A DNA stretch of 64,000 nt from Gammaproteobacteria bacterium (GTDB taxonomy: Bacteria > Pseudomonadota > Gammaproteobacteria > UBA4575), in contig CBDCUI010000008.1 of assembly GCA_965222615.1 (NCBI GenBank), positions 704,001-768,000 on the forward strand, given 5' to 3'. Below the pieces are notes generated by a model, which searched no databases, was not told the DNA's origin, and worked only from the letters and a program-made list of their open reading frames with translations. Of the stretch, positions 475 to 36,967 are shown piece by piece. Every line of letters begins with the position of its first letter. The stretch's first letter is position 1. A program made the position numbers and the translations under genes.

Positions 475-512
475 ATAAAAAATTATTTATTACTAAATAT
501 TACTGGGAATCA

Positions 513-647
513 AGAAGCTGTGATTTTTTTTGAGACAAGGCAAAAAATATCGAAAAAGCGCAGTGTATTGGTTACATACATGAGCATTTTGAGGTTATTT
601 TTTAACGACCTAAAAAATTAATTACGGCAGAATAAATCACAGTTTCT
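513..647 (-). repeat. Palindromic element copy 1 (MITE/RPE-like), opposite orientation to copies 2-6
   Basis: Terminal inverted repeat AGAAGCTGTGATTT (513-526) / AAATCACAGTTTCT (634-647). The reverse complement contains TGCTCA-TGTAT..ATACA-CTGCGC-TTTTTCGATATTTTTTGCCTTGTCTCA, matching copies 2-4. Confidence 0.9.
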
Positions 648-1804: not shown

Positions 1805-1926
1805 GGAAACTCTGATTTAAACTGATACTTCGTTAAAAAATGATCTCAAAGTCGCTCATGTATAAAAACTGCACATCGCTCTTTTCGACATTTTTTGCCT
1901 TGTCTCAGATTAAATCAGAGCTTCTT
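1804..1926 (+). repeat. Palindromic element copy 2
   Basis: Terminal inverted repeat AGGAAACTCTGATTTAA / TTAAATCAGAGCTTCTT. Contains TACTTCGTT, GCTCATGTA and GCCTTGTCTCAG. Begins in the rplA stop codon. Confidence 0.9.
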
Positions 1927-3194: not shown

Positions 3195-3327
3195 CTGAAA
3201 GCTCTGATTTATTCTGATACGTCGTTAAAAAATGTCTCAAAATGCTCATTTACCAGCATGTAAACTGCGCTTTTTCGACATTTTTTGCCTCGTCTCAGTC
3301 GTTCACACTAATAAATCAAAGCTTCAG
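3195..3327 (+). repeat. Palindromic element copy 3
   Basis: Terminal inverted repeat CTGAAAGCTCTGATTTATT / AATAAATCAAAGCTTCAG. Core is TACGTCGTT-AAAAAATGTC..TGCTCA-TTTAC-6nt-GTAAA-CTGCGC..GACATTTTTT-GCCTCGTC. Confidence 0.92.
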
Positions 3328-16154: not shown

Positions 16155-16472
16155 ATGCCAGCAGCAGGACAAACCATACGTATACGCTTAAAAGCCTTCG
16201 ATCATCGACTTATAGATCGTTCTGCAAGTGAAATCGTAGAAACAGCGAAGCGTACCGGTGCAAGGGTGAGGGGACCGATCCCTTTACCTACCAAAAAAGA
16301 GCGTTTTACAGTGCTGATTTCTCCACATGTGGATAAGAATGCGCGGGATCAGTATGAGATACGTACTCATAAGCGCATAATGGATATCGTCGAGCCTACC
16401 GATAAGACCGTGGATGCCTTGATGAAATTGGATTTGGCGGCAGGCGTTGATGTTCAAATCAAATTAAATTAA
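16155..16472 (+). CDS. rpsJ: 30S ribosomal protein S10
   Basis: [14 protein letters not shown] and GPIPLPT motifs. Confidence 0.99.
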
Positions 16473-16620
16473 GAAAGCCCTGATTTATCCTGATACGCCC
16501 CTAAAAAATTTGATTATGAAAAAATGTCTTAAAATACTCATGTATCACCTATACACTCCACTTTTTCGACATTTTTGCCTCGTCTCAGTCACATATACTG
16601 ATAAAACAGAGTTTCTTTAA
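16469..16620 (+). repeat. Palindromic element copy 4
   Basis: Terminal inverted repeat TTAAGAAAGCCCTGATTTATC / GATAAAACAGAGTTTCTTTAA. Core is TACTCA-TGTAT..ATACA-CTCCAC..GACATTTTT-GCCTCGTCTCAG. Overlaps the rpsJ stop codon. Confidence 0.9.
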
Positions 16621-23819: not shown

Positions 23820-24347
23820 ATGTCGCGAATTGCTAAACAAGCTATCGATATTCCATCTGGTGTGGATGTGAAGTTACAAGGGCAGCATCTTACCGTAAAA
23901 GGCCCTAATGGTGAGTTGTCTATGGATATTCACGACGATGTTAACGTTGAGTTGCAAGATAAACGATTACAAGTGGTAATGGAAAAGTCAAACAATGTTG
24001 CCATGGCTGGAACCATGCGTGCATTGATGAATAATTTAGTGACAGGTGTAAATGCTGGATTTGAACGCAAGCTAGAATTGGTTGGTGTTGGTTATCGTGC
24101 ACAATCAAAAGGTAAGACGTTGAATTTATCATTAGGGTTTTCACACCCGGTTGATTATCCAGTGCCGGAAGGAATTAAAATTGAGACACCAAGTCAGACA
24201 GAGGTCGTGATTAAAGGTGCTGATAAGCAAAAAGTTGGACAAGTTGCTGCAGAAATTCGTGCCTTTCGACCGCCTGAACCCTATAAGGGTAAGGGTGTTA
24301 AATATGCGGAAGAGAGGATCGTACGCAAAGAGGCAAAGAAAAAGTAA
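23820..24347 (+). CDS. rplF: 50S ribosomal protein L6
   Basis: [13 protein letters not shown] motif. Confidence 0.99.
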
Positions 24348-24504
24348 AGGCTATGACACATATGATCTTTTTCTCCAATACATCGTTTTCGAATTTCTCA
24401 AATGCTCATGTACTGGCGTGTACACTCCGCCCTAAAATAATGAGACTAGGGAAATTCTCAGGCCTTGTCTTGAAGAAAAATTTCTATCTGTGTAATAGCT
24501 TTAA
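24345..24504 (+). repeat. Palindromic element copy 5 (divergent stems)
   Basis: Imperfect terminal inverted repeat TAAAGGCTATGACACA / TGTGTAATAGCTTTAA. Conserved TACATCGTT, TGCTCA-TGTAC..GTACA-CTCCGC and GCCTTGTC. Starts at the rplF stop codon. Confidence 0.88.
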
Positions 24505-24526
24505 ATAATTATTTAATTTAATTGTG

Positions 24527-24880
24527 ATGAATAAATCAAATTCAAGAACACGACGGGCTTTAAAGACGCGCAAAAAAATATCTGCGTTGAAAGCCCATCG
24601 CTTGTGTGTGCATCGAACTCCAAAACACATATATGCACAAATCATTACACCAGCTGGCGGTGAAACAATTGTCAGTGCATCGTCTTTGGATACGAGTGTG
24701 CGAGATGCAGTTAATTACACTGGTAATGTGGAAGCGGCAAAAGCCGTTGGAAAAATGATTGCCGAACGCGCCAAAGATAAAGGTGTAGAAAATGTAGCCT
24801 TTGATCGCTCTGGCTTTAAATACCATGGTCGTGTTAAAGCCATGGCAGATGCTGCCCGCGAAGCAGGATTAAAGTTTTAA
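24527..24880 (+). CDS. rplR: 50S ribosomal protein L18
   Basis: [14 protein letters not shown] motif. Confidence 0.98.
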
Positions 24881-24904
24881 GTAACAATCAAGGATTATTA
24901 GTAA

Positions 24905-25411
24905 ATGGCAACGAACGAACCAGCAAGAATATCAGACGGTCTAGAAGAGAGATTGGTGGCCGTCAATCGTGTTGCAAAAGTAGTAAAAGGTGGCCGTCAA
25001 TTTGGTTTTACTGCGCTTACGGTGGTTGGTGACGGTAATGGCAAAGTGGGAGTAGGTTACGGGAAAGCGCGTGAAGTCCCTTTGGCGATACAAAAAGCAA
25101 TGGAAAAAGCACGTAAAGAATTAAAGCATGTGCCACTTATAGACGGTACTTTATATTACCCGGTGATGGGTAGACATGGTGCAGCAAAAATATTTATGCA
25201 ACCTGCCTCTGTGGGAACCGGAATTATTGCTGGTGGCGCAATGCGTGCCGTATTTGAAGTAGTTGGTGTGAAAAACGTTTTATCAAAATGCATCGGGTCT
25301 AGAAACCCGATCAATGTAGTACAAGCGACCATTAATGCATTGAGTAATATGCAATCACCCGATTTAATTGCTGCGAAACGTGGCAAGACGGTTGAAGAAA
25401 TTATGTCGTGA
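24905..25411 (+). CDS. rpsE: 30S ribosomal protein S5
   Basis: [10 protein letters not shown] and GTGIIAGG motifs. Confidence 0.99.
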
Positions 25412-25425
25412 GTGAACTTCAGAAT

Positions 25426-25608
25426 ATGAGTAAGCAATTAAAAGTGACATTAGTGAAAAGCCTAAGTGGAAGACTTGCGGCCCATAAGGCATGTGCAAGA
25501 GGCTTGGGTATTCGTCGTATTCATAATCCGGTTATGGTTGTAGATACTCCTGAAAACCGCGGCATGATTAATAAGATTAGCTATATGCTAAAAGTTGAAG
25601 ACACATAA
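25426..25608 (+). CDS. rpmD: 50S ribosomal protein L30
   Basis: LKVTLVKS and DTPENRGMI motifs. Start at ATG 25426. Confidence 0.96.
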
Positions 25609-25751
25609 AGAACTTATCTCAAAATGAATCTTTTCCATTTATACAACGTTCTCGCTTTTCTTAAATGCTCATGTACTAGCGTGTACACTGCGCTTTTCGA
25701 AAAGCTCGGGCCTCGTCTAAATGTAAAATCTCCAATTTTGAGATAAGTTCT
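25609..25751 (+). repeat. Palindromic element copy 6 (divergent stems)
   Basis: Perfect 17-bp terminal inverted repeat AGAACTTATCTCAAAAT / ATTTTGAGATAAGTTCT. Conserved TACAACGTT, TGCTCA-TGTAC..GTACA-CTGCGC and GCCTCGTC. Directly follows the rpmD stop codon. Confidence 0.92.
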
Positions 25752-25771: not shown

Positions 25772-26206
25772 ATGAACTTAAATAATCTAAAACCAGCAAC
25801 AGGAAGTCGCTCAACACGACGGCGTGTAGGTCGAGGTATGGGCTCTGGATACGGTAAGACGTGTGGTCGTGGTCATAAGGGTCAGCATTCACGTAGAGGT
25901 GGATACCACAAAGTTGGTTTTGAAGGTGGGCAAATGCCATTACAGAGACGTTTGCCTAAAGTAGGTTTTCGATCTCGTAAAGCTAGTCAAACTGCTGAGC
26001 TACGTCTACATGAATTAGCCATTGTTGATGAAGATATTGTCGATATTAATGCCCTCAAAGATGCCAAGCTGGTGCCGGAAACGGTTAAAAAAGTAAAAGT
26101 AATTCAATCTGGAAAAATAGAAACAGCCGTGAAGACCAAGGGCCTATCGTTTACGCCTGGCGCCAAAAAAGCCGTTGAAGCTGCCGGAGGAACAATAGAA
26201 GACTAA
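25772..26206 (+). CDS. rplO: 50S ribosomal protein L15
   Basis: [15 protein letters not shown] motif. Confidence 0.99.
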
Positions 26207-31552: not shown

Positions 31553-34500
31553 ATGGCAAGGAAGCACCATTTTTTAATTAAACTCATATATATACTGTTA
31601 CTGTTCTGTATCAGTAATGTTTATGCAGTAGATACTCCTTTTTCAATTGACTTAGGTGCAGACGGGCATGACTTGGAGTTTGATAGTTCTCGTAATGTAA
31701 TATACGCAAGTGTCCCTTCTCTAAACCAAGTAGTAGTTATAGACGTTTCAACACTGCAACTACATAAAACTATCACTTTAAATGCACAACCACGGGGCTT
31801 AGATCTAAGTCTTGATGCAACGAAACTTTATATTGCTTTAAATGGAACTGGTTCAGTAGGTATTCTAGATCTCGCTACAGATGTTGTAACAGAAGTTGTA
31901 GTTAATCAATTAAACGATTTACGCACATGGGATGTAGAAGAAACTGAAGAAAATAGAATTTTTGTTTCAGCAAATCCTGGTAGTTTTGGATTGTCCTACA
32001 TAGTAGAAATTTTAGTTGATAGTTCCGGTAATTTAGTTAGTGAACAAAGAGTAGCAAATGGAAACGTAATTAGGTCGGGCCCTGTATTTGGTGTTAGTCC
32101 GGATAGTAATTTTCTATACATTGGTGATAGTGGAAATAGTTTGTTTAAGTTAGATTTGAACCAAGCTAGCTCTCCTATCGTTTTAGAAGATAGCTTCACT
32201 TTAACAGGAGTGGACAAAATTGACTTAAGCCCAGACGGTTCACGTTTACATACCACTAGAGGCGAGACTTTGCGTACAGACTTATTTGTGCATGCCAGTC
32301 GAAATCCAGAGCGTGGCTTGGTTGCTTATGGACAATCTCCTGACCAATATTTTTTGGCTGAAAGAAGTTCATTTGGATTTAATGGTATGACTAATATCAA
32401 TTACTATGATAGCCAAAAGTCTAATAAGTTAGGCTCATTTACTATTCCATGTTTAGCAGATGGGAATTCATTTGTAGATTTTTTGATTTTGTCTAATGAC
32501 AGTGTATTTCTTACTTTAAATGACAATTTAATATGTGGTGTAACGACTGACACTGTTACTAAAGATAGCGACAGCGATACGGTGCGAGATTTTGTCGATA
32601 ATTGTGAAAATATTGTTAATTCTGATCAATCTAATATTGATGGTGATGAATTTGGTGATGCTTGTGACTCTTTTCCGAACGATGCAAGTAATGGAGCGAT
32701 TAACGATCCTGATTCAAATCAGCTCATGTTTTCAGAAGCTGTTCAAGATATAATTTACGATAGTGCGCGAAATGTATTTTATGCAAGTATTCCCCTGCTA
32801 AATGAAATTGTTGTTGTTAATGCAAATACATTCCAGATTCAAAAACGAATTGTTGTGGGTTCATCTCCAAGGGGATTAAATTTAAGTATTGATAATTCAA
32901 AGTTATTAGTTGCTTTGTATGGAGCTACTGGATTTGCAATAGTAGATTTATTGGCAAATACAGTATCAGAAATAGTTGCGGAACAGTTAGGGGATTCACG
33001 AACATGGGACGTAATAGAAACAGATACAAATAGAATATTTGTTTCTGCTAGCCCAGGAAGCAATGGTTTTTCTTATATTGTAGAAGTAAAACTAGATGGC
33101 TCCGGAAATGTAATCAGCCAACAGCGTGTTGCCGATGGAAGAATTATTAGATCTGGTCCAACATTTGCTCTGAGTCCGGATGGAGATTTCCTCTACATTG
33201 GTGATGGGGATGGCTCTCTTTTAAAACTCGATCTAAATCAAGCCAATGTCCCTATAGTACTCGAGAATCCAAACATTATTGGTAATAACATCGATGAGGC
33301 TAATGATTTTGTTTTGAGTCCAGATGGTGTACGCATTCATACACCCAGGGGGCAAGTAATAAATACAGATACCTTTCTTATAGAATCACAGTTACCTGTG
33401 GGTCCAGTTACTTACAGTTTGTCAGGTGAGTATTTGTTAGTTGCAGAGTTATCAACTTTTTCTAATGAAAGTACACAAGTAAATGTATACAACAGCGGTG
33501 CTAGCCAACTAGTTGGTACTTTTATGTTTACTTGTACAGGCGATAGTAATTCATTTAGTAGTAATAATATCTTATCTATTACTGCTGATGATACGTTCGT
33601 GATTCTCAGTAATGCCCCAGTAAGTAATGGTGTTATATGTAGAACTACAAATAACATATTTGCGGATTCTGATAACGATTCAATTTTTGATATAAGTGAC
33701 AATTGCCCAAATATTGCTAATACGAATCAGTCAAATATAGATGGTGATATGTTTGGAGACATTTGTGACCCTTATCCAAATGATGCGAATAATGTTCCAA
33801 CTGCATTAGAATTATTTCCACTTGTCCCAGGTACAACTTTTAATTATTTGGTGAATTCTTCAGTTCAAGAAACTGAAACAATTTTGCCGCAGAGTTTATT
33901 TAATGGAGTACAAACTTTTGGAGTGCAGGATAATGAAGGTGATATTGAATACTATACAAACGATGTGAACGGACTGCTTGATTACGGTTCATTAGATACG
34001 GTGGATGGGTTTACTATTATTTCATCACCTCCGCTTAAGTTTTTAAATGCTCAACCTATATTGGGCCAGCAAATTAACCAATCTGGGACGTTAATTACTA
34101 ATGACCCTGTTATAGGCTCACTTTCTTATACGTACTCTTCGACTGTAATAGGGCTAGAAACAATTACAGTTCCATTAGGTACGTTTGAAGCTCTAAGAGT
34201 TGATTTCACACTTACTGCTTCAGGGATTGTATTTCTAACACAAACCAGCTCTCACTGGTATGCAAAAGATATTGGTTTAATACGTGATGAAACTACTACA
34301 GATGGTCTCCTTGAAGTTAGAGAATTAGTTTCTATCCAATCTCCACCACAAATCGTGACACCGGCGGAAGGCAGCACGTTACCGGGAAGTAGTGTGACGA
34401 TCACATGGAATGCGAATGGTGTAACTCCCCAGTTTTGGGCGGTGAATGCAGGCAGCAGTCCGGGTGCATCAAACTTAGCGGCATCAGGTGCGTTGGCGGG

Positions 34501-36967
34501 GAATGTTACGCAAACAACATTAACGAACTTACCTACGGATGGGCAGCCGATTTACATTCGATTGTATACAGGTAACAATGGAATATTCAATGTCGTTGAT
34601 GAGAATCAATACACCGCCTTTACTCCTGCACCGACTCCACAAATCGTATCACCAGCGAATGGCAGTACTTTAAGTGGTGATAGTGTAACGATTACATGGA
34701 ATGCCAATGGAGTAACCCCGCAGAACTGGGTTGTGAATGCGGGCAACAGTTCGGGGGTATCAGATTTGGCGACTTCAGGGATGTTAGCGGGCAATGCTAC
34801 ACAAGTGACATTAACCAACTTACCCACCAATGGACAAACGATATTCGTATCACTGAACACTGTTGATAATGGAATTTCCACCCTTGTCGATGAAAATCAA
34901 TATGTAGCATTTAATCCTTCTCCTGGAGTTCCACAAATCGTGACACCGGCGGAAGGCAGCACGTTACCGGGAAGTAGTGTGACGATCACATGGAATGCGA
35001 ATGGTGTAACTCCCCAGTTTTGGGCGGTGAATGCAGGCAGCAGTCCGGGTGCATCAAACTTAGCGGCATCAGGTGCGTTGGCGGGGAATGTTACGCAAAC
35101 AACATTAACGAACTTACCTACGGATGGGCAGCCGATTTACATTCGATTGTATACAGGTAACAATGGAATATTCAATGTCGTTGATGAGAATCAATACACC
35201 GCCTTTACTCCTGCACCGACTCCACAAATCGTATCACCAGCGAATGGCAGTACTTTAAGTGGTGATAGTGTAACGATTACATGGAATGCCAATGGAGTAA
35301 CCCCGCAGAACTGGGTTGTGAATGCGGGCAACAGTTCGGGGGTATCAGATTTGGCGACTTCAGGGATGTTAGCGGGCAATGCTACACAAGTGACATTAAC
35401 CAACTTACCCACCAATGGACAAACGATATTCGTATCACTGAACACTGTTGATAATGGAATTTCCACCCTTGTCGATGAAAATCAATATGTAGCATTTAAT
35501 CCTTCTCCTGGAGTTCCACAAATCGTGACACCGGCGGAAGGCAGCACGTTACCGGGAAGTAGTGTGACGATCACATGGAATGCGAATGGTGTAACTCCCC
35601 AGTTTTGGGCGGTGAATGCAGGCAGCAGTCCGGGTGCATCAAACTTAGCGGCATCAGGTGCGTTGGCGGGGAATGTTACGCAAACAACATTAACGAACTT
35701 ACCTACGGATGGGCAGCCGATTTACATTCGATTGTATACAGGTAACAATGGAATATTCAATGTCGTTGATGAGAATCAATACACCGCCTTTACTCCTGCA
35801 CCGACTCCACAAATCGTATCACCAGCGAATGGCAGTACTTTAAGTGGTGATAGTGTAACGATTACATGGAATGCCAATGGAGTAACCCCGCAGAACTGGG
35901 TTGTGAATGCGGGCAACAGTTCGGGGGTATCAGATTTGGCGACTTCAGGGATGTTAGCGGGCAATGCTACACAAGTGACATTAACCAACTTACCCACCAA
36001 TGGACAAACGATATTCGTATCACTGAACACTGTTGATAATGGAATTTCCACCCTTGTCGATGAAAATCAATATGTAGCATTTAATCCTTCTCCTGGAGTT
36101 CCACAAATCGTGACACCGGCGGAAGGCAGCACGTTACCGGGAAGTAGTGTGACGATCACATGGAATGCGAATGGTGTAACTCCCCAGTTTTGGGCGGTGA
36201 ATGCAGGCAGCAGTCCGGGTGCATCAAACTTAGCGGCATCAGGTGCGTTGGCGGGGAATGTTACGCAAACAACATTAACGAACTTACCTACGGATGGGCA
36301 GCCGATTTACATTCGATTGTATACAGGTAACAATGGAATATTCAATGTCGTTGATGAGAATCAATACACCGCCTTTACTCCTGCACCGACTCCACAAATC
36401 GTATCACCAGCGAATGGCAGTACTTTAAGTGGTGATAGTGTAACGATTACATGGAATGCCAATGGAGTAACCCCGCAGAACTGGGTTGTGAATGCGGGCA
36501 ACAGTTCGGGGGTATCAGATTTGGCGACTTCAGGGATGTTAGCGGGCAATGCTACACAAGTGACATTAACCAACTTACCCACCAATGGACAAACGATATT
36601 CGTATCACTGAACACTGTTGATAATGGAATTTCCACCCTTGTCGATGAAAATCAATATGTAGCATTTAATCCTTCTCCTGGAGTTCCACAAATCGTGACA
36701 CCGGCGGAAGGCAGCACGTTACCGGGAAGTAGTGTGACGATCACATGGAATGCGAATGGTGTAACTCCCCAGTTTTGGGCGGTGAATGCAGGCAGCAGTC
36801 CGGGTGCATCAAACTTAGCGGCATCAGGTGCGTTGGCGGGGAATGTTACGCAAACAACATTAACGAACTTACCTACGGATGGGCAGCCGATTTACATTCG
36901 ATTGTATACAGGTAACAATGGAATATTCAATGTCGTTGATGAGAATCAATATACAGCGAGTCAATAA
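31553..36967 (+). CDS. Large secreted repeat protein: 2x (beta-propeller + thrombospondin type-3 repeats), a beta-rich domain and 9 Ig/FN3-like repeats
   Basis: Signal peptide ending VYA. Two homologous YVTN-like regions. DSDxDxxxDxxDNC...DGDxFGDxCD motifs at 32564-32668 and 33665-33769. ETITVPLGTF..WYAKDIGLI domain. Alternating ~97-aa repeats at the C-terminus. Confidence 0.85.
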   Translation: MARKHHFLIKLIYILLLFCISNVYAVDTPFSIDLGADGHDLEFDSSRNVIYASVPSLNQVVVIDVSTLQLHKTITLNAQPRGLDLSLDATKLYIALNGTGSVGILDLATDVVTEVVVNQLNDLRTWDVEETEENRIFVSANPGSFGLSYIVEILVDSSGNLVSEQRVANGNVIRSGPVFGVSPDSNFLYIGDSGNSLFKLDLNQASSPIVLEDSFTLTGVDKIDLSPDGSRLHTTRGETLRTDLFVHASRNPERGLVAYGQSPDQYFLAERSSFGFNGMTNINYYDSQKSNKLGSFTIPCLADGNSFVDFLILSNDSVFLTLNDNLICGVTTDTVTKDSDSDTVRDFVDNCENIVNSDQSNIDGDEFGDACDSFPNDASNGAINDPDSNQLMFSEAVQDIIYDSARNVFYASIPLLNEIVVVNANTFQIQKRIVVGSSPRGLNLSIDNSKLLVALYGATGFAIVDLLANTVSEIVAEQLGDSRTWDVIETDTNRIFVSASPGSNGFSYIVEVKLDGSGNVISQQRVADGRIIRSGPTFALSPDGDFLYIGDGDGSLLKLDLNQANVPIVLENPNIIGNNIDEANDFVLSPDGVRIHTPRGQVINTDTFLIESQLPVGPVTYSLSGEYLLVAELSTFSNESTQVNVYNSGASQLVGTFMFTCTGDSNSFSSNNILSITADDTFVILSNAPVSNGVICRTTNNIFADSDNDSIFDISDNCPNIANTNQSNIDGDMFGDICDPYPNDANNVPTALELFPLVPGTTFNYLVNSSVQETETILPQSLFNGVQTFGVQDNEGDIEYYTNDVNGLLDYGSLDTVDGFTIISSPPLKFLNAQPILGQQINQSGTLITNDPVIGSLSYTYSSTVIGLETITVPLGTFEALRVDFTLTASGIVFLTQTSSHWYAKDIGLIRDETTTDGLLEVRELVSIQSPPQIVTPAEGSTLPGSSVTITWNANGVTPQFWAVNAGSSPGASNLAASGALAGNVTQTTLTNLPTDGQPIYIRLYTGNNGIFNVVDENQYTAFTPAPTPQIVSPANGSTLSGDSVTITWNANGVTPQNWVVNAGNSSGVSDLATSGMLAGNATQVTLTNLPTNGQTIFVSLNTVDNGISTLVDENQYVAFNPSPGVPQIVTPAEGSTLPGSSVTITWNANGVTPQFWAVNAGSSPGASNLAASGALAGNVTQTTLTNLPTDGQPIYIRLYTGNNGIFNVVDENQYTAFTPAPTPQIVSPANGSTLSGDSVTITWNANGVTPQNWVVNAGNSSGVSDLATSGMLAGNATQVTLTNLPTNGQTIFVSLNTVDNGISTLVDENQYVAFNPSPGVPQIVTPAEGSTLPGSSVTITWNANGVTPQFWAVNAGSSPGASNLAASGALAGNVTQTTLTNLPTDGQPIYIRLYTGNNGIFNVVDENQYTAFTPAPTPQIVSPANGSTLSGDSVTITWNANGVTPQNWVVNAGNSSGVSDLATSGMLAGNATQVTLTNLPTNGQTIFVSLNTVDNGISTLVDENQYVAFNPSPGVPQIVTPAEGSTLPGSSVTITWNANGVTPQFWAVNAGSSPGASNLAASGALAGNVTQTTLTNLPTDGQPIYIRLYTGNNGIFNVVDENQYTAFTPAPTPQIVSPANGSTLSGDSVTITWNANGVTPQNWVVNAGNSSGVSDLATSGMLAGNATQVTLTNLPTNGQTIFVSLNTVDNGISTLVDENQYVAFNPSPGVPQIVTPAEGSTLPGSSVTITWNANGVTPQFWAVNAGSSPGASNLAASGALAGNVTQTTLTNLPTDGQPIYIRLYTGNNGIFNVVDENQYTASQ
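34346..36951 (+). repeat. Intragenic tandem repeat, 585-bp unit, about 4.5 copies
   Basis: CCACAAATCGTGACACCGGCGGAAGG recurs at 34346, 34931, 35516, 36101 and 36686. Four identical antisense ORFs occur at 585-bp spacing. Confidence 0.97.

Follow-up and report, generated by a model that had tools for sequence, protein, structure and literature searches.

Elements of the ERIC (IRU, RU-1, MITEEc1) and Correia (CREE, NEMIS) families have been used for decades in typing and in the study of gene regulation, and to our knowledge neither what moves them nor why they are conserved is known. In the sections consulted of a review, ERIC is described as a MITE (miniature inverted-repeat transposable element) with terminal inverted repeats, a target duplication and a terminal TA, in which no further DNA motif has been found, and as a co-transcribed sequence whose RNase E effect in Yersinia depends on orientation (Delihas 2008, PMC2229807). 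A second review, likewise seen in part, places ERIC under the Enterobacteriaceae and reports no similarity among the MITE cores of Neisseria, E. coli and Anabaena (Delihas 2011, PMC3184786), and MITEEc1 is filed under IS630 in the available text of a 2024 census, where MITE clusters at 95% identity are genus-specific and 0 bacterial clusters of mixed phylum are given (Nadal-Molero et al., PMC11602168). CREE, which measure 69-156 nt and have TA as their target, are MITEs as well (PMC2649163, in the sections consulted), and for ERIC and Correia alike the review sections speak of a transcript hairpin processed by RNase E or RNase III. Here we compare with these systems a repeated hairpin element found in the window, that is, the whole stretch of 64,000 nucleotides that was analysed (positions 704,001 to 768,000 of contig CBDCUI010000008.1, assembly GCA_965222615.1, a gammaproteobacterium of the UBA4575 lineage), in which a first-pass annotation had singled out copies whose stems swap sequence while two internal loops stay conserved.

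The copies of this element are mobile insertions, and the element is very probably a MITE, a non-autonomous DNA transposon comparable in kind to enterobacterial ERIC/IRU and Neisseria Correia. It is not a new kind of thing, and it has colonised even ribosomal protein operons by inserting at stop codons. In addition, we present evidence that one folded core is common to families and phyla and links ERIC to many unnamed lineages, and the same shared core probably links Correia as well. The element measures 130-150 nt and forms an imperfect palindrome, or foldback. Outermost is a terminal inverted repeat that is specific to the lineage, and inward of it follow a conserved basal module (..TAC-NN-CGTT opposite GCCT-Y-GTC..), a freely covarying stem of 10-11 bp and a conserved apical module (AAA-TGCTCA-TKTAC, loop, GTAMA-CTSCGC-TTT). 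A profile built from the copies retrieved six of them in the window; across the source genome (3.10 Mb, 39% G+C) nhmmer gave 129 matches at E<=1e-3 and 148 after one iteration, and a covariance model (CM) gave 130. The anchors are likewise enriched in the window, with 4 matches to TGCTCA-N8-30-CTSCGC against 0.17 expected and 5 to CGTT-N40-70-GCCTYGTC against 0.19 expected, one of the latter (28177) being a chance match inside a gene. A strict regular expression for the anchors recovered just 25 of the 148 copies and was dropped.

According to the first-pass annotation, the terminal repeats fall into three unrelated types and the whole pattern is the reverse of that of classical MITEs. The repeat sequences do differ, but they share a common frame, and the second statement was not borne out, as terminal inverted repeats, flank duplications, empty sites and a likeness to ERIC and Correia were all found. 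Ends of the GGAAGCTCTGATTTAT type, the dominant one, occur in at least 31 copies, and other repeats are present in Chlorobium and Salinicola copies. The flanks of dominant-type copies mostly read TTAA, CTAA or CTAG, and among the copies with both GGAAG-type ends at least three of the four flank bases are identical in 17 of 31, compared with 4 of 31 in a shifted control. Likewise, four of the younger-looking copies of Chlorobium ferrooxidans are bordered by identical 4-nt flanks (TAAT, GTAT and, twice, TTAT), and the flanks of Salinicola copies are CTAG/CTAA-like. Two of the occupied spacers in the window, L6|L18 and L30|L15, measure approximately 7-50 nt and contain no element in all five related complete genomes examined. 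Measured against gene calls made by script, 32 of the 111 complete element ends that face a gene 3' end lie 0-2 nt past the stop codon, and none of the 117 that face a gene start lies within 0-2 nt of it. This landing on stop codons, TAA or TAG, is accounted for by a TA-containing target, since in a coding-dense genome the stop codons supply the TA.

The six copies of the window, and the four ribosomal protein genes (assigned by Pfam) that border the two spacers just mentioned, are located as follows.

511..646, minus strand: copy 1, between the NusG and L11 genes, the sole antisense copy of the window.
1805..1925, plus strand: copy 2, which directly abuts the L1 stop codon (1802-1804) and has a degenerate apical part.
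3198..3327, plus strand: copy 3, 16 nt past the L7/L12 stop codon and upstream of an open reading frame (ORF) of 1360 aa.
16473..16617, plus strand: copy 4, which directly abuts the S10 stop codon (16470-16472), decayed and with an extra insertion in its 5' arm.
23820..24347, plus strand: ribosomal protein L6 gene, whose TAA stop adjoins copy 5.
24348..24500, plus strand: copy 5, a full element in the L6/L18 spacer (nhmmer match 24349-24493, CM core 24374-24475).
24524-24880: ribosomal protein L18 gene.
25408..25608, plus strand: ribosomal protein L30 gene, whose TAA stop adjoins copy 6.
25609..25751, plus strand: copy 6, a full element in the L30/L15 spacer (CM core 25637-25723).
25772-26206: ribosomal protein L15 gene.

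All six copies lie between co-directional ribosomal or nusG genes, and four of them start at the first base after a TAA (after L1, S10, L6 and L30). Positions 24345-25751, to which the stem and loop pattern had been assigned, cover the two ribosomal-operon spacers L6|L18 and L30|L15, with one copy each and the S5 gene (Pfam) between them, and hold copies 5 and 6 only, the other four lying outside. These two copies are imperfect palindromes that are 82% alike over 66 nt. Copy 5 directly follows the L6 stop codon (24345-24347) and has a 3' arm made longer by an extra insertion, its outer inverted repeat being still legible; copy 6 directly follows the L30 stop codon (25606-25608), is bounded by perfect 17-bp terminal inverted repeats (25609-25625 and 25735-25751) and has a match of 143-146 nt at 80-82% identity elsewhere in the genomes G001 and G005. 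Copy 3 is a clean representative of the dominant terminal-repeat type.

Further observations concern the arrangement of copies and contigs in the source genome (G000). Tandem copy pairs, their members within about 120-150 nt of one another, are present at C9:477025-477284 and C8:91156-91492, and likewise in a metagenome-assembled genome (MAG) of the Bacteroidaceae (locus L172). Six long copies of 200-212 nt, with match starts at C8:853644, C9:914115, C8:699443, C9:885693, C8:469487 and C8:773037, carry an identical 68-nt insert at one fixed internal site after the CGC-TTT segment, and this insert looks like either a second small element targeting the first or a longer ancestral form. An ORF of 1804 aa (window 31553-36967, plus strand) lies directly downstream of the ribosomal and alpha operon region. 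The small contigs C1 and C2 hold ORFs at least 80% identical to ORFs of contig C8 (C8:773-785 kb and C8:247-249 kb). Both small contigs may represent these stretches assembled a second time, as alternatives or duplicates.

The fold of the element was assessed in alignments at three levels, and the sequence motifs quoted in the first-pass annotation could all be located, namely the apical TGTAT/ATACA of copies 1 and 4, TTTAC/GTAAA of copy 3 and TGTAC/GTACA of copies 5 and 6, the middle stems AAAAAATGTC/GACATTTTTT, GAATTTC/GAAATTC and GCTTTTC/GAAAAGC, and the segments TAC-N-W-CGTT opposite GCCT-Y-GTC and TGCTCA opposite CT-S-CGC. Covariation in larger alignments, one of the observations on which the pattern had been made to depend beforehand, was strong within the genome, within the family and across phyla. 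For the genome, 27 diverse copies were aligned to a hand-drawn structure of 32 pairs, followed by Infernal, and 86.7% of the cells pair, compared with 71.1% in shuffles (none of 500 reached the observed value) and 28-48% in slid controls, the last comparison being somewhat flattering given that the structure was drawn from the same 27 sequences; both sides change in 22 of the 32 pairs. The family alignment, composed of the best copy from each of 27 other genomes, displayed 86.2% of paired cells and changes on both sides in 25 of the 32 pairs, and it leans toward the drawn structure through having been fitted to the model. In the cross-phylum alignment A4 the corresponding number is 29 of the 32, and there the conservation of the apical part is given by construction, because the loci were chosen by an exact apical motif, which does not apply to the basal module and the stems. 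RNAalifold run on a profile hidden Markov model alignment, in which indels misplace the stems, returned no structure on either strand.

The claim that stems swap sequence stood for the lower stem and the middle stem of 10-11 bp, which vary freely, but not for the apical stem, which hardly varies and is conserved like the loops. Accordingly, the expectation that the loops are more conserved than the stems was met by a slight difference only, of 1.25 versus 1.14 bits for loops and paired columns in the genome alignment and 1.19 versus 1.05 bits in the family alignment, because the apical stem hardly varies and equals the loops. The segments described as unpaired and conserved are indeed fixed and asymmetric, but parts of them form covarying pairs. 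The partner of the G of TGCTCA is the last C of CGC (GC 52, CG 16 and AU 9 across phyla), and in the genome and family alignments the AC of TAC covaries with its partner, the GT of GTC. A near-fixed T.G pair stands beside an invariant G-C pair in 26 of 27 genome copies, 27 of 28 sequences of the family alignment and 54 of 76 of the cross-phylum alignment. It had been proposed that a protein or a tertiary fold reads the loops, and of this proposal the part that finds support is selection for a folded structure with conserved asymmetric segments, as judged by the covariation at the three levels. These alignments clearly point to selection on the fold, and the evidence does not say in which molecule.

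Strong covariation and conserved loop nucleotides are also what would be expected if the element were primarily a structured RNA with a function of its own (a hairpin regulating in cis, a signal for processing or stability, a small RNA or a motif that cleaves itself), with mobility secondary and the loops serving as a tertiary fold or protein site in the transcript. The orientation of the copies lends itself to such an explanation. The first-pass annotation had suggested that the active strand may be antisense to the mRNA in five of six copies, and this found no support: the TGCTCA strand is the sense strand in five of the six window copies, in 71 versus 33 of the 104 co-directional sites of the genome (p = 2.5e-4), and in 24 versus 4 cases among 78 loci from other taxa; copies are also found between convergent genes more than between divergent ones, 30 versus 8 in the genome and 14 versus 1 in the other taxa, the remaining 35 of the 78 loci having overlapped crude ORFs (25) or lain at locus edges (10). 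To this bias toward sense orientation and gene 3' ends may be added the near-invariant T.G pair, which would be U.G on the sense strand, the short single copies located in Vibrionaceae-type loci, where they separate co-directional genes, and in a guaB|guaA spacer, and the orientation-dependent RNase E effects of ERIC described in the review sections cited above. Nevertheless, the G-U and A-C evidence is mixed, as had been noted earlier: with the fixed T.G pair set aside, neither strand is favoured by the counts of GT versus AC, 21-23 versus 35-38 in the genome and family alignments and 73 versus 89 across phyla. In single-copy folding the reverse strand is better by 7-15 kcal/mol, the shuffles behave likewise, and the z-scores are similar on both strands. 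No Rfam match to the element was obtained even at E<=1 in 7 copy-bearing loci, and Rfam 15 at gathering score gave 0 matches in the window. Furthermore, no neighbouring gene recurs in the 80 diverse loci described below beyond GMP synthase/IMP dehydrogenase and histidine kinases, copy number varies from 1 to about 130 between relatives, and the terminal repeats and flank duplications indicate transposition, so that a primary role as a structured RNA seems to us rather improbable. With regard to neighbours, the element was observed between the IMP dehydrogenase and GMP synthase genes in an Aliivibrio MAG (L150 4053-4117) and in an Alistipes MAG (L100 7023-7105), and short forms of 65 nt without the middle helix separate co-directional genes in Photobacterium and at other loci.

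The model (TGCTCA) strand is also the leading strand in 99 copies versus 47 (p = 2e-5), and within convergent or divergent spacers in 26 versus 11; the sense and leading-strand biases are confounded, and both seem to contribute. A leading-strand bias, together with conserved asymmetric bulges in a hairpin, would suit a single-strand DNA hairpin moved by an HUH (Y1) enzyme that reads bulges and loops, as in REP/RAYT or IS200/IS605 palindromes, and one Y1_Tnp gene is indeed present in the source genome. This gene has neither an element copy nor inverted repeats beside it, and Y1_Tnp, found in 8 of the 56 family genomes, is distributed without regard to the element (4 of 27 element-positive and 4 of 29 element-negative genomes), so the suggested HUH partnership found no support. 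The element, moreover, measures about 130 nt and not 20-40 nt, has no GTAG or CGTC head, and is accompanied by flank duplications that would be unexpected for HUH transposition; we consider this mode of movement very unlikely. The Y1_Tnp gene (230 aa; C8:548432-550154, locus L259 428-2154) lies directly downstream of one of three IS30-like transposase genes.

A further proposal assigns the copies to another mobile system, which they would serve as structures for recombination or as guides (IS110 targets, bridge or seek RNAs, attC-like sites). It draws on the 11 IS110-family transposase genes of the genome, which form two groups of 6 and 5 copies, on a layout with two internal loops that superficially recalls bridge RNAs, and on the fact that attC sites also keep structure over sequence. 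The first-pass annotation had named IS110 as a possible partner, and none of the 11 genes has an element copy within 1.5 kb. The element copies are dispersed singly and form no cassette arrays, their loops are conserved across phyla instead of being matched to each element's own ends, and the flank duplications point to a different chemistry, all of which leaves this proposal scarcely credible. The IS110-family genes themselves are clustered in few regions and not dispersed (C7:788-822 kb and C9:253-260 kb).

With the CM built from the source genome alone, the core was recovered well beyond that genome, in other families of its class, in Chlorobium and relatives and in gut Bacteroidota, and matches to ERIC and Correia are of a divergent form. 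In the host family, a CM match at E<=1e-5 is present in 27 of 56 genomes and 7 of 11 genera, with 1 to 30 matches listed per genome. A scan of a species-genome collection with the exact apical pattern, which shows presence and not distribution, gave at least 120 stretches, from which 80 loci were taken. Among the matches listed for these loci are Pseudomonas, Salinicola, Halomonas, Methylophaga, Acinetobacter and Nitrosomonadales, and also Chlorobium, Alistipes, other Bacteroidota, Bdellovibrionaceae and some MAGs labelled Bacillota or Vampirovibrionales, the taxon labels of MAGs being possibly affected by contamination. The CM matched 84 sites on the 80 loci, almost always over its full length, and 37 of these sites scored at least 45 bits. 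Copy numbers from whole-genome scans were 53 for Salinicola tamaricis, 38 for Pseudomonas yangonensis, 52 for Chlorobium ferrooxidans, 13 for one Bacteroidaceae MAG and 2 for Acinetobacter corruptisaponis. Scans that do not depend on the apical pattern agree with this picture: with one genome per family and E<=1e-6, the 88-nt core was detected in 69 of the 150 other families sampled from the class, or in 68 of 149 when the unpublished genome G099 is left out, and a match is present in 20 of 120 further genomes from the phylum to which the Chlorobium genome belongs. A description of such a cross-phylum structured core was not found in the literature searched, which did not reach subscription papers, figures and supplements, and within that literature the core appears to be undescribed.

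The link to ERIC emerged from an apical variant, TCACTTAC..GTAAGCTCC, of the family members L082, L083 and L086, which occurs exactly at 11 sites of E. coli K-12 and at none in a reversed control. All 11 sites are palindromes of the 127-bp type, which we take to be ERIC from its central sequence and from properties given in reviews; the RefSeq record of one such stretch carries no annotated repeat feature. The cross-phylum model R2 matches all 11 K-12 copies at full length, with 17-37 bits and E from 1.6e-8 to 0.021. Elsewhere in K-12 (NC_000913.3 2543676-2543755; L296 1496-1584), the ucpA|cysP spacer holds a single copy with 45.9 bits in R2 and 34.4 in R1, the model built from the single source genome; it scores above every ERIC copy on the core, and the record has no repeat feature there.

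Repeat patterns printed in PMC2649163 were used to retrieve CREE copies, which yielded 21 viral-contig loci. Directly inside the terminal repeat these copies carry ..TAC-GG-CGTT-G.. and ..C-GCCTTGTC.., which correspond to the basal module, and the strings ..TACGGCGTTG.. and ..CGCCTTGTC.. occur both in CREE copies and in copies of the element family such as L044 and L112. The 69-nt CREE form aligns to the first 15 and the last 15 positions of the model. On the strength of these alignments, kinship with Correia may be regarded as a lead.

Several observations weigh against the interpretation of the element as a MITE akin to ERIC and Correia. The Correia link consists of about 19 shared bases, with 13 bits and E 0.011, and the single-genome model R1 matches just 2 of the 11 K-12 ERIC copies at E<0.01 and gives only 1 match in a scan of the whole K-12 chromosome. 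The flank repeats in the source genome are often imperfect, being identical over 4 nt in only 4 of 31 copies and having TA on both sides in 10 of 31, and the gene maps used for orientation and stop distance were crude ORF calls made by script. Neither an autonomous parent nor a cognate transposase was found in the source genome, where PF01609 (IS4/IS5) and PF13358 (IS630-type) have no match, no kb-scale element with the same ends is present, and only 2 of the 25 multi-copy transposase genes (IS110, IS481-like, IS30-like and IS3) have a copy within 1.5 kb; in Salinicola, 41 BLAST matches included no kb-scale split copy. Finally, a transposase acting on double-stranded DNA gives no reason for a freely drifting middle stem to stay complementary, and therefore something beyond recognition of the terminal repeats must be selecting the fold. 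A stretch of 1481 bp with the same ends was rejected as an autonomous partner, as it encloses a single ORF of 455 aa, presumably a cobyrinic acid a,c-diamide synthase and not a transposase, by our own reading of its sequence with no family search. For Correia, too, the lack of a related autonomous element or cognate transposase is stated in the sections consulted of a review (PMC2649163).

For the element as a MITE, we hypothesize that a trans-acting cut-and-paste transposase, encoded outside the element, would make a staggered cut of 2-4 bp at TA-containing targets; as this transposase was not found in the source genome, the copies there are probably old. The foldback would be kept by selection on master copies, either because the hairpin, as single-stranded DNA or as transcript, is required for spread, or because only well-folded copies are tolerated within operons. 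The conserved asymmetric segments, where the arms differ in a fixed way, would be the likeliest contacts for a mobilising or host factor. More tentatively, and with considerable doubt on our part, the 88-nt core may be one ancient module of ERIC, Correia and many unnamed MITEs, in at least Pseudomonadota, Bacteroidota/Chlorobia and Bdellovibrionota, kept because a conserved factor recognises the hairpin itself, in the form of single-stranded DNA or of transcript. This factor would be the mobiliser of ERIC and Correia or else a protein of the host, namely a nuclease or one that binds RNA. If so, few uncatalogued structured non-coding elements of bacteria would be as widespread as this core, whose spread would be governed by structure and not by the sequence of the terminal repeats. 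If the sharing of the core holds, comparative genomics could show which gene tracks recent activity of the element, and the hairpin would be testable at the bench. For annotation there is a practical risk, as an element that sits inside core operons right after stop codons could pass for a terminator or a small RNA.

Among described systems, REP/BIME with RAYT and the IS200/IS605 palindromes resemble the element in that they are hairpins scattered over intergenic regions, conserve their mismatches and show a bias toward one replication strand, but the element is much longer, possesses terminal repeats and flank duplications, and has no associated Y1 gene. QMITE2 of Coxiella burnetii is, like the element, a MITE-like hairpin at gene 3' ends, for which matches of 83-100 nt are reported in other proteobacteria; as described in the sections consulted, it has a GTAG REP, direct repeats of 7-11 nt and IS1111 insertions (Wachter et al. 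2018, PMC5896051), none of which was seen in the element, and it is by this description only that the two are set apart. In CREE and the element, the basal modules have the same T/C mismatch and AC/GT pairs, and in the 106-nt CREE form, as in the element, a ..CTGC segment comes after a GTAC-loop-GTAC apex. However, the terminal repeats of the element bear no relation to the 26-nt Correia repeat, whose start is absent from all 308 loci examined; the long CREE core, which is said to hold an IHF site, differs from that of the element, and the middle helix is not evident in CREE.

In ERIC, the motifs ..GCGTT.., ..CTCA.., TCA-YTTAC, loop, GTAAR-CTCC and ..GCCTTG.. follow one another in an order and spacing like those of the element. 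Both are imperfect palindromes of about 127-145 nt that occupy intergenic spacers and have terminal inverted repeats with TA at the termini, the properties of ERIC being taken from the review sections consulted. Their terminal repeats are unrelated, and ERIC has a CCCC/GGGG helix where the element has AAA(A)/TTT(T) plus GC/GC. Longer variants of the element carry an insert at a fixed internal site (6 copies, 68 nt), and ERIC likewise has longer variants with an insert at a fixed internal site. In addition, ERIC is listed as enterobacterial in the parts of the reviews at hand, whereas the element is found in an unrelated gammaproteobacterium of 39% G+C and in other phyla. Taken together, the sequence comparison supports kinship between the element and ERIC at the superfamily level, and not its assignment to ERIC in the strict sense.

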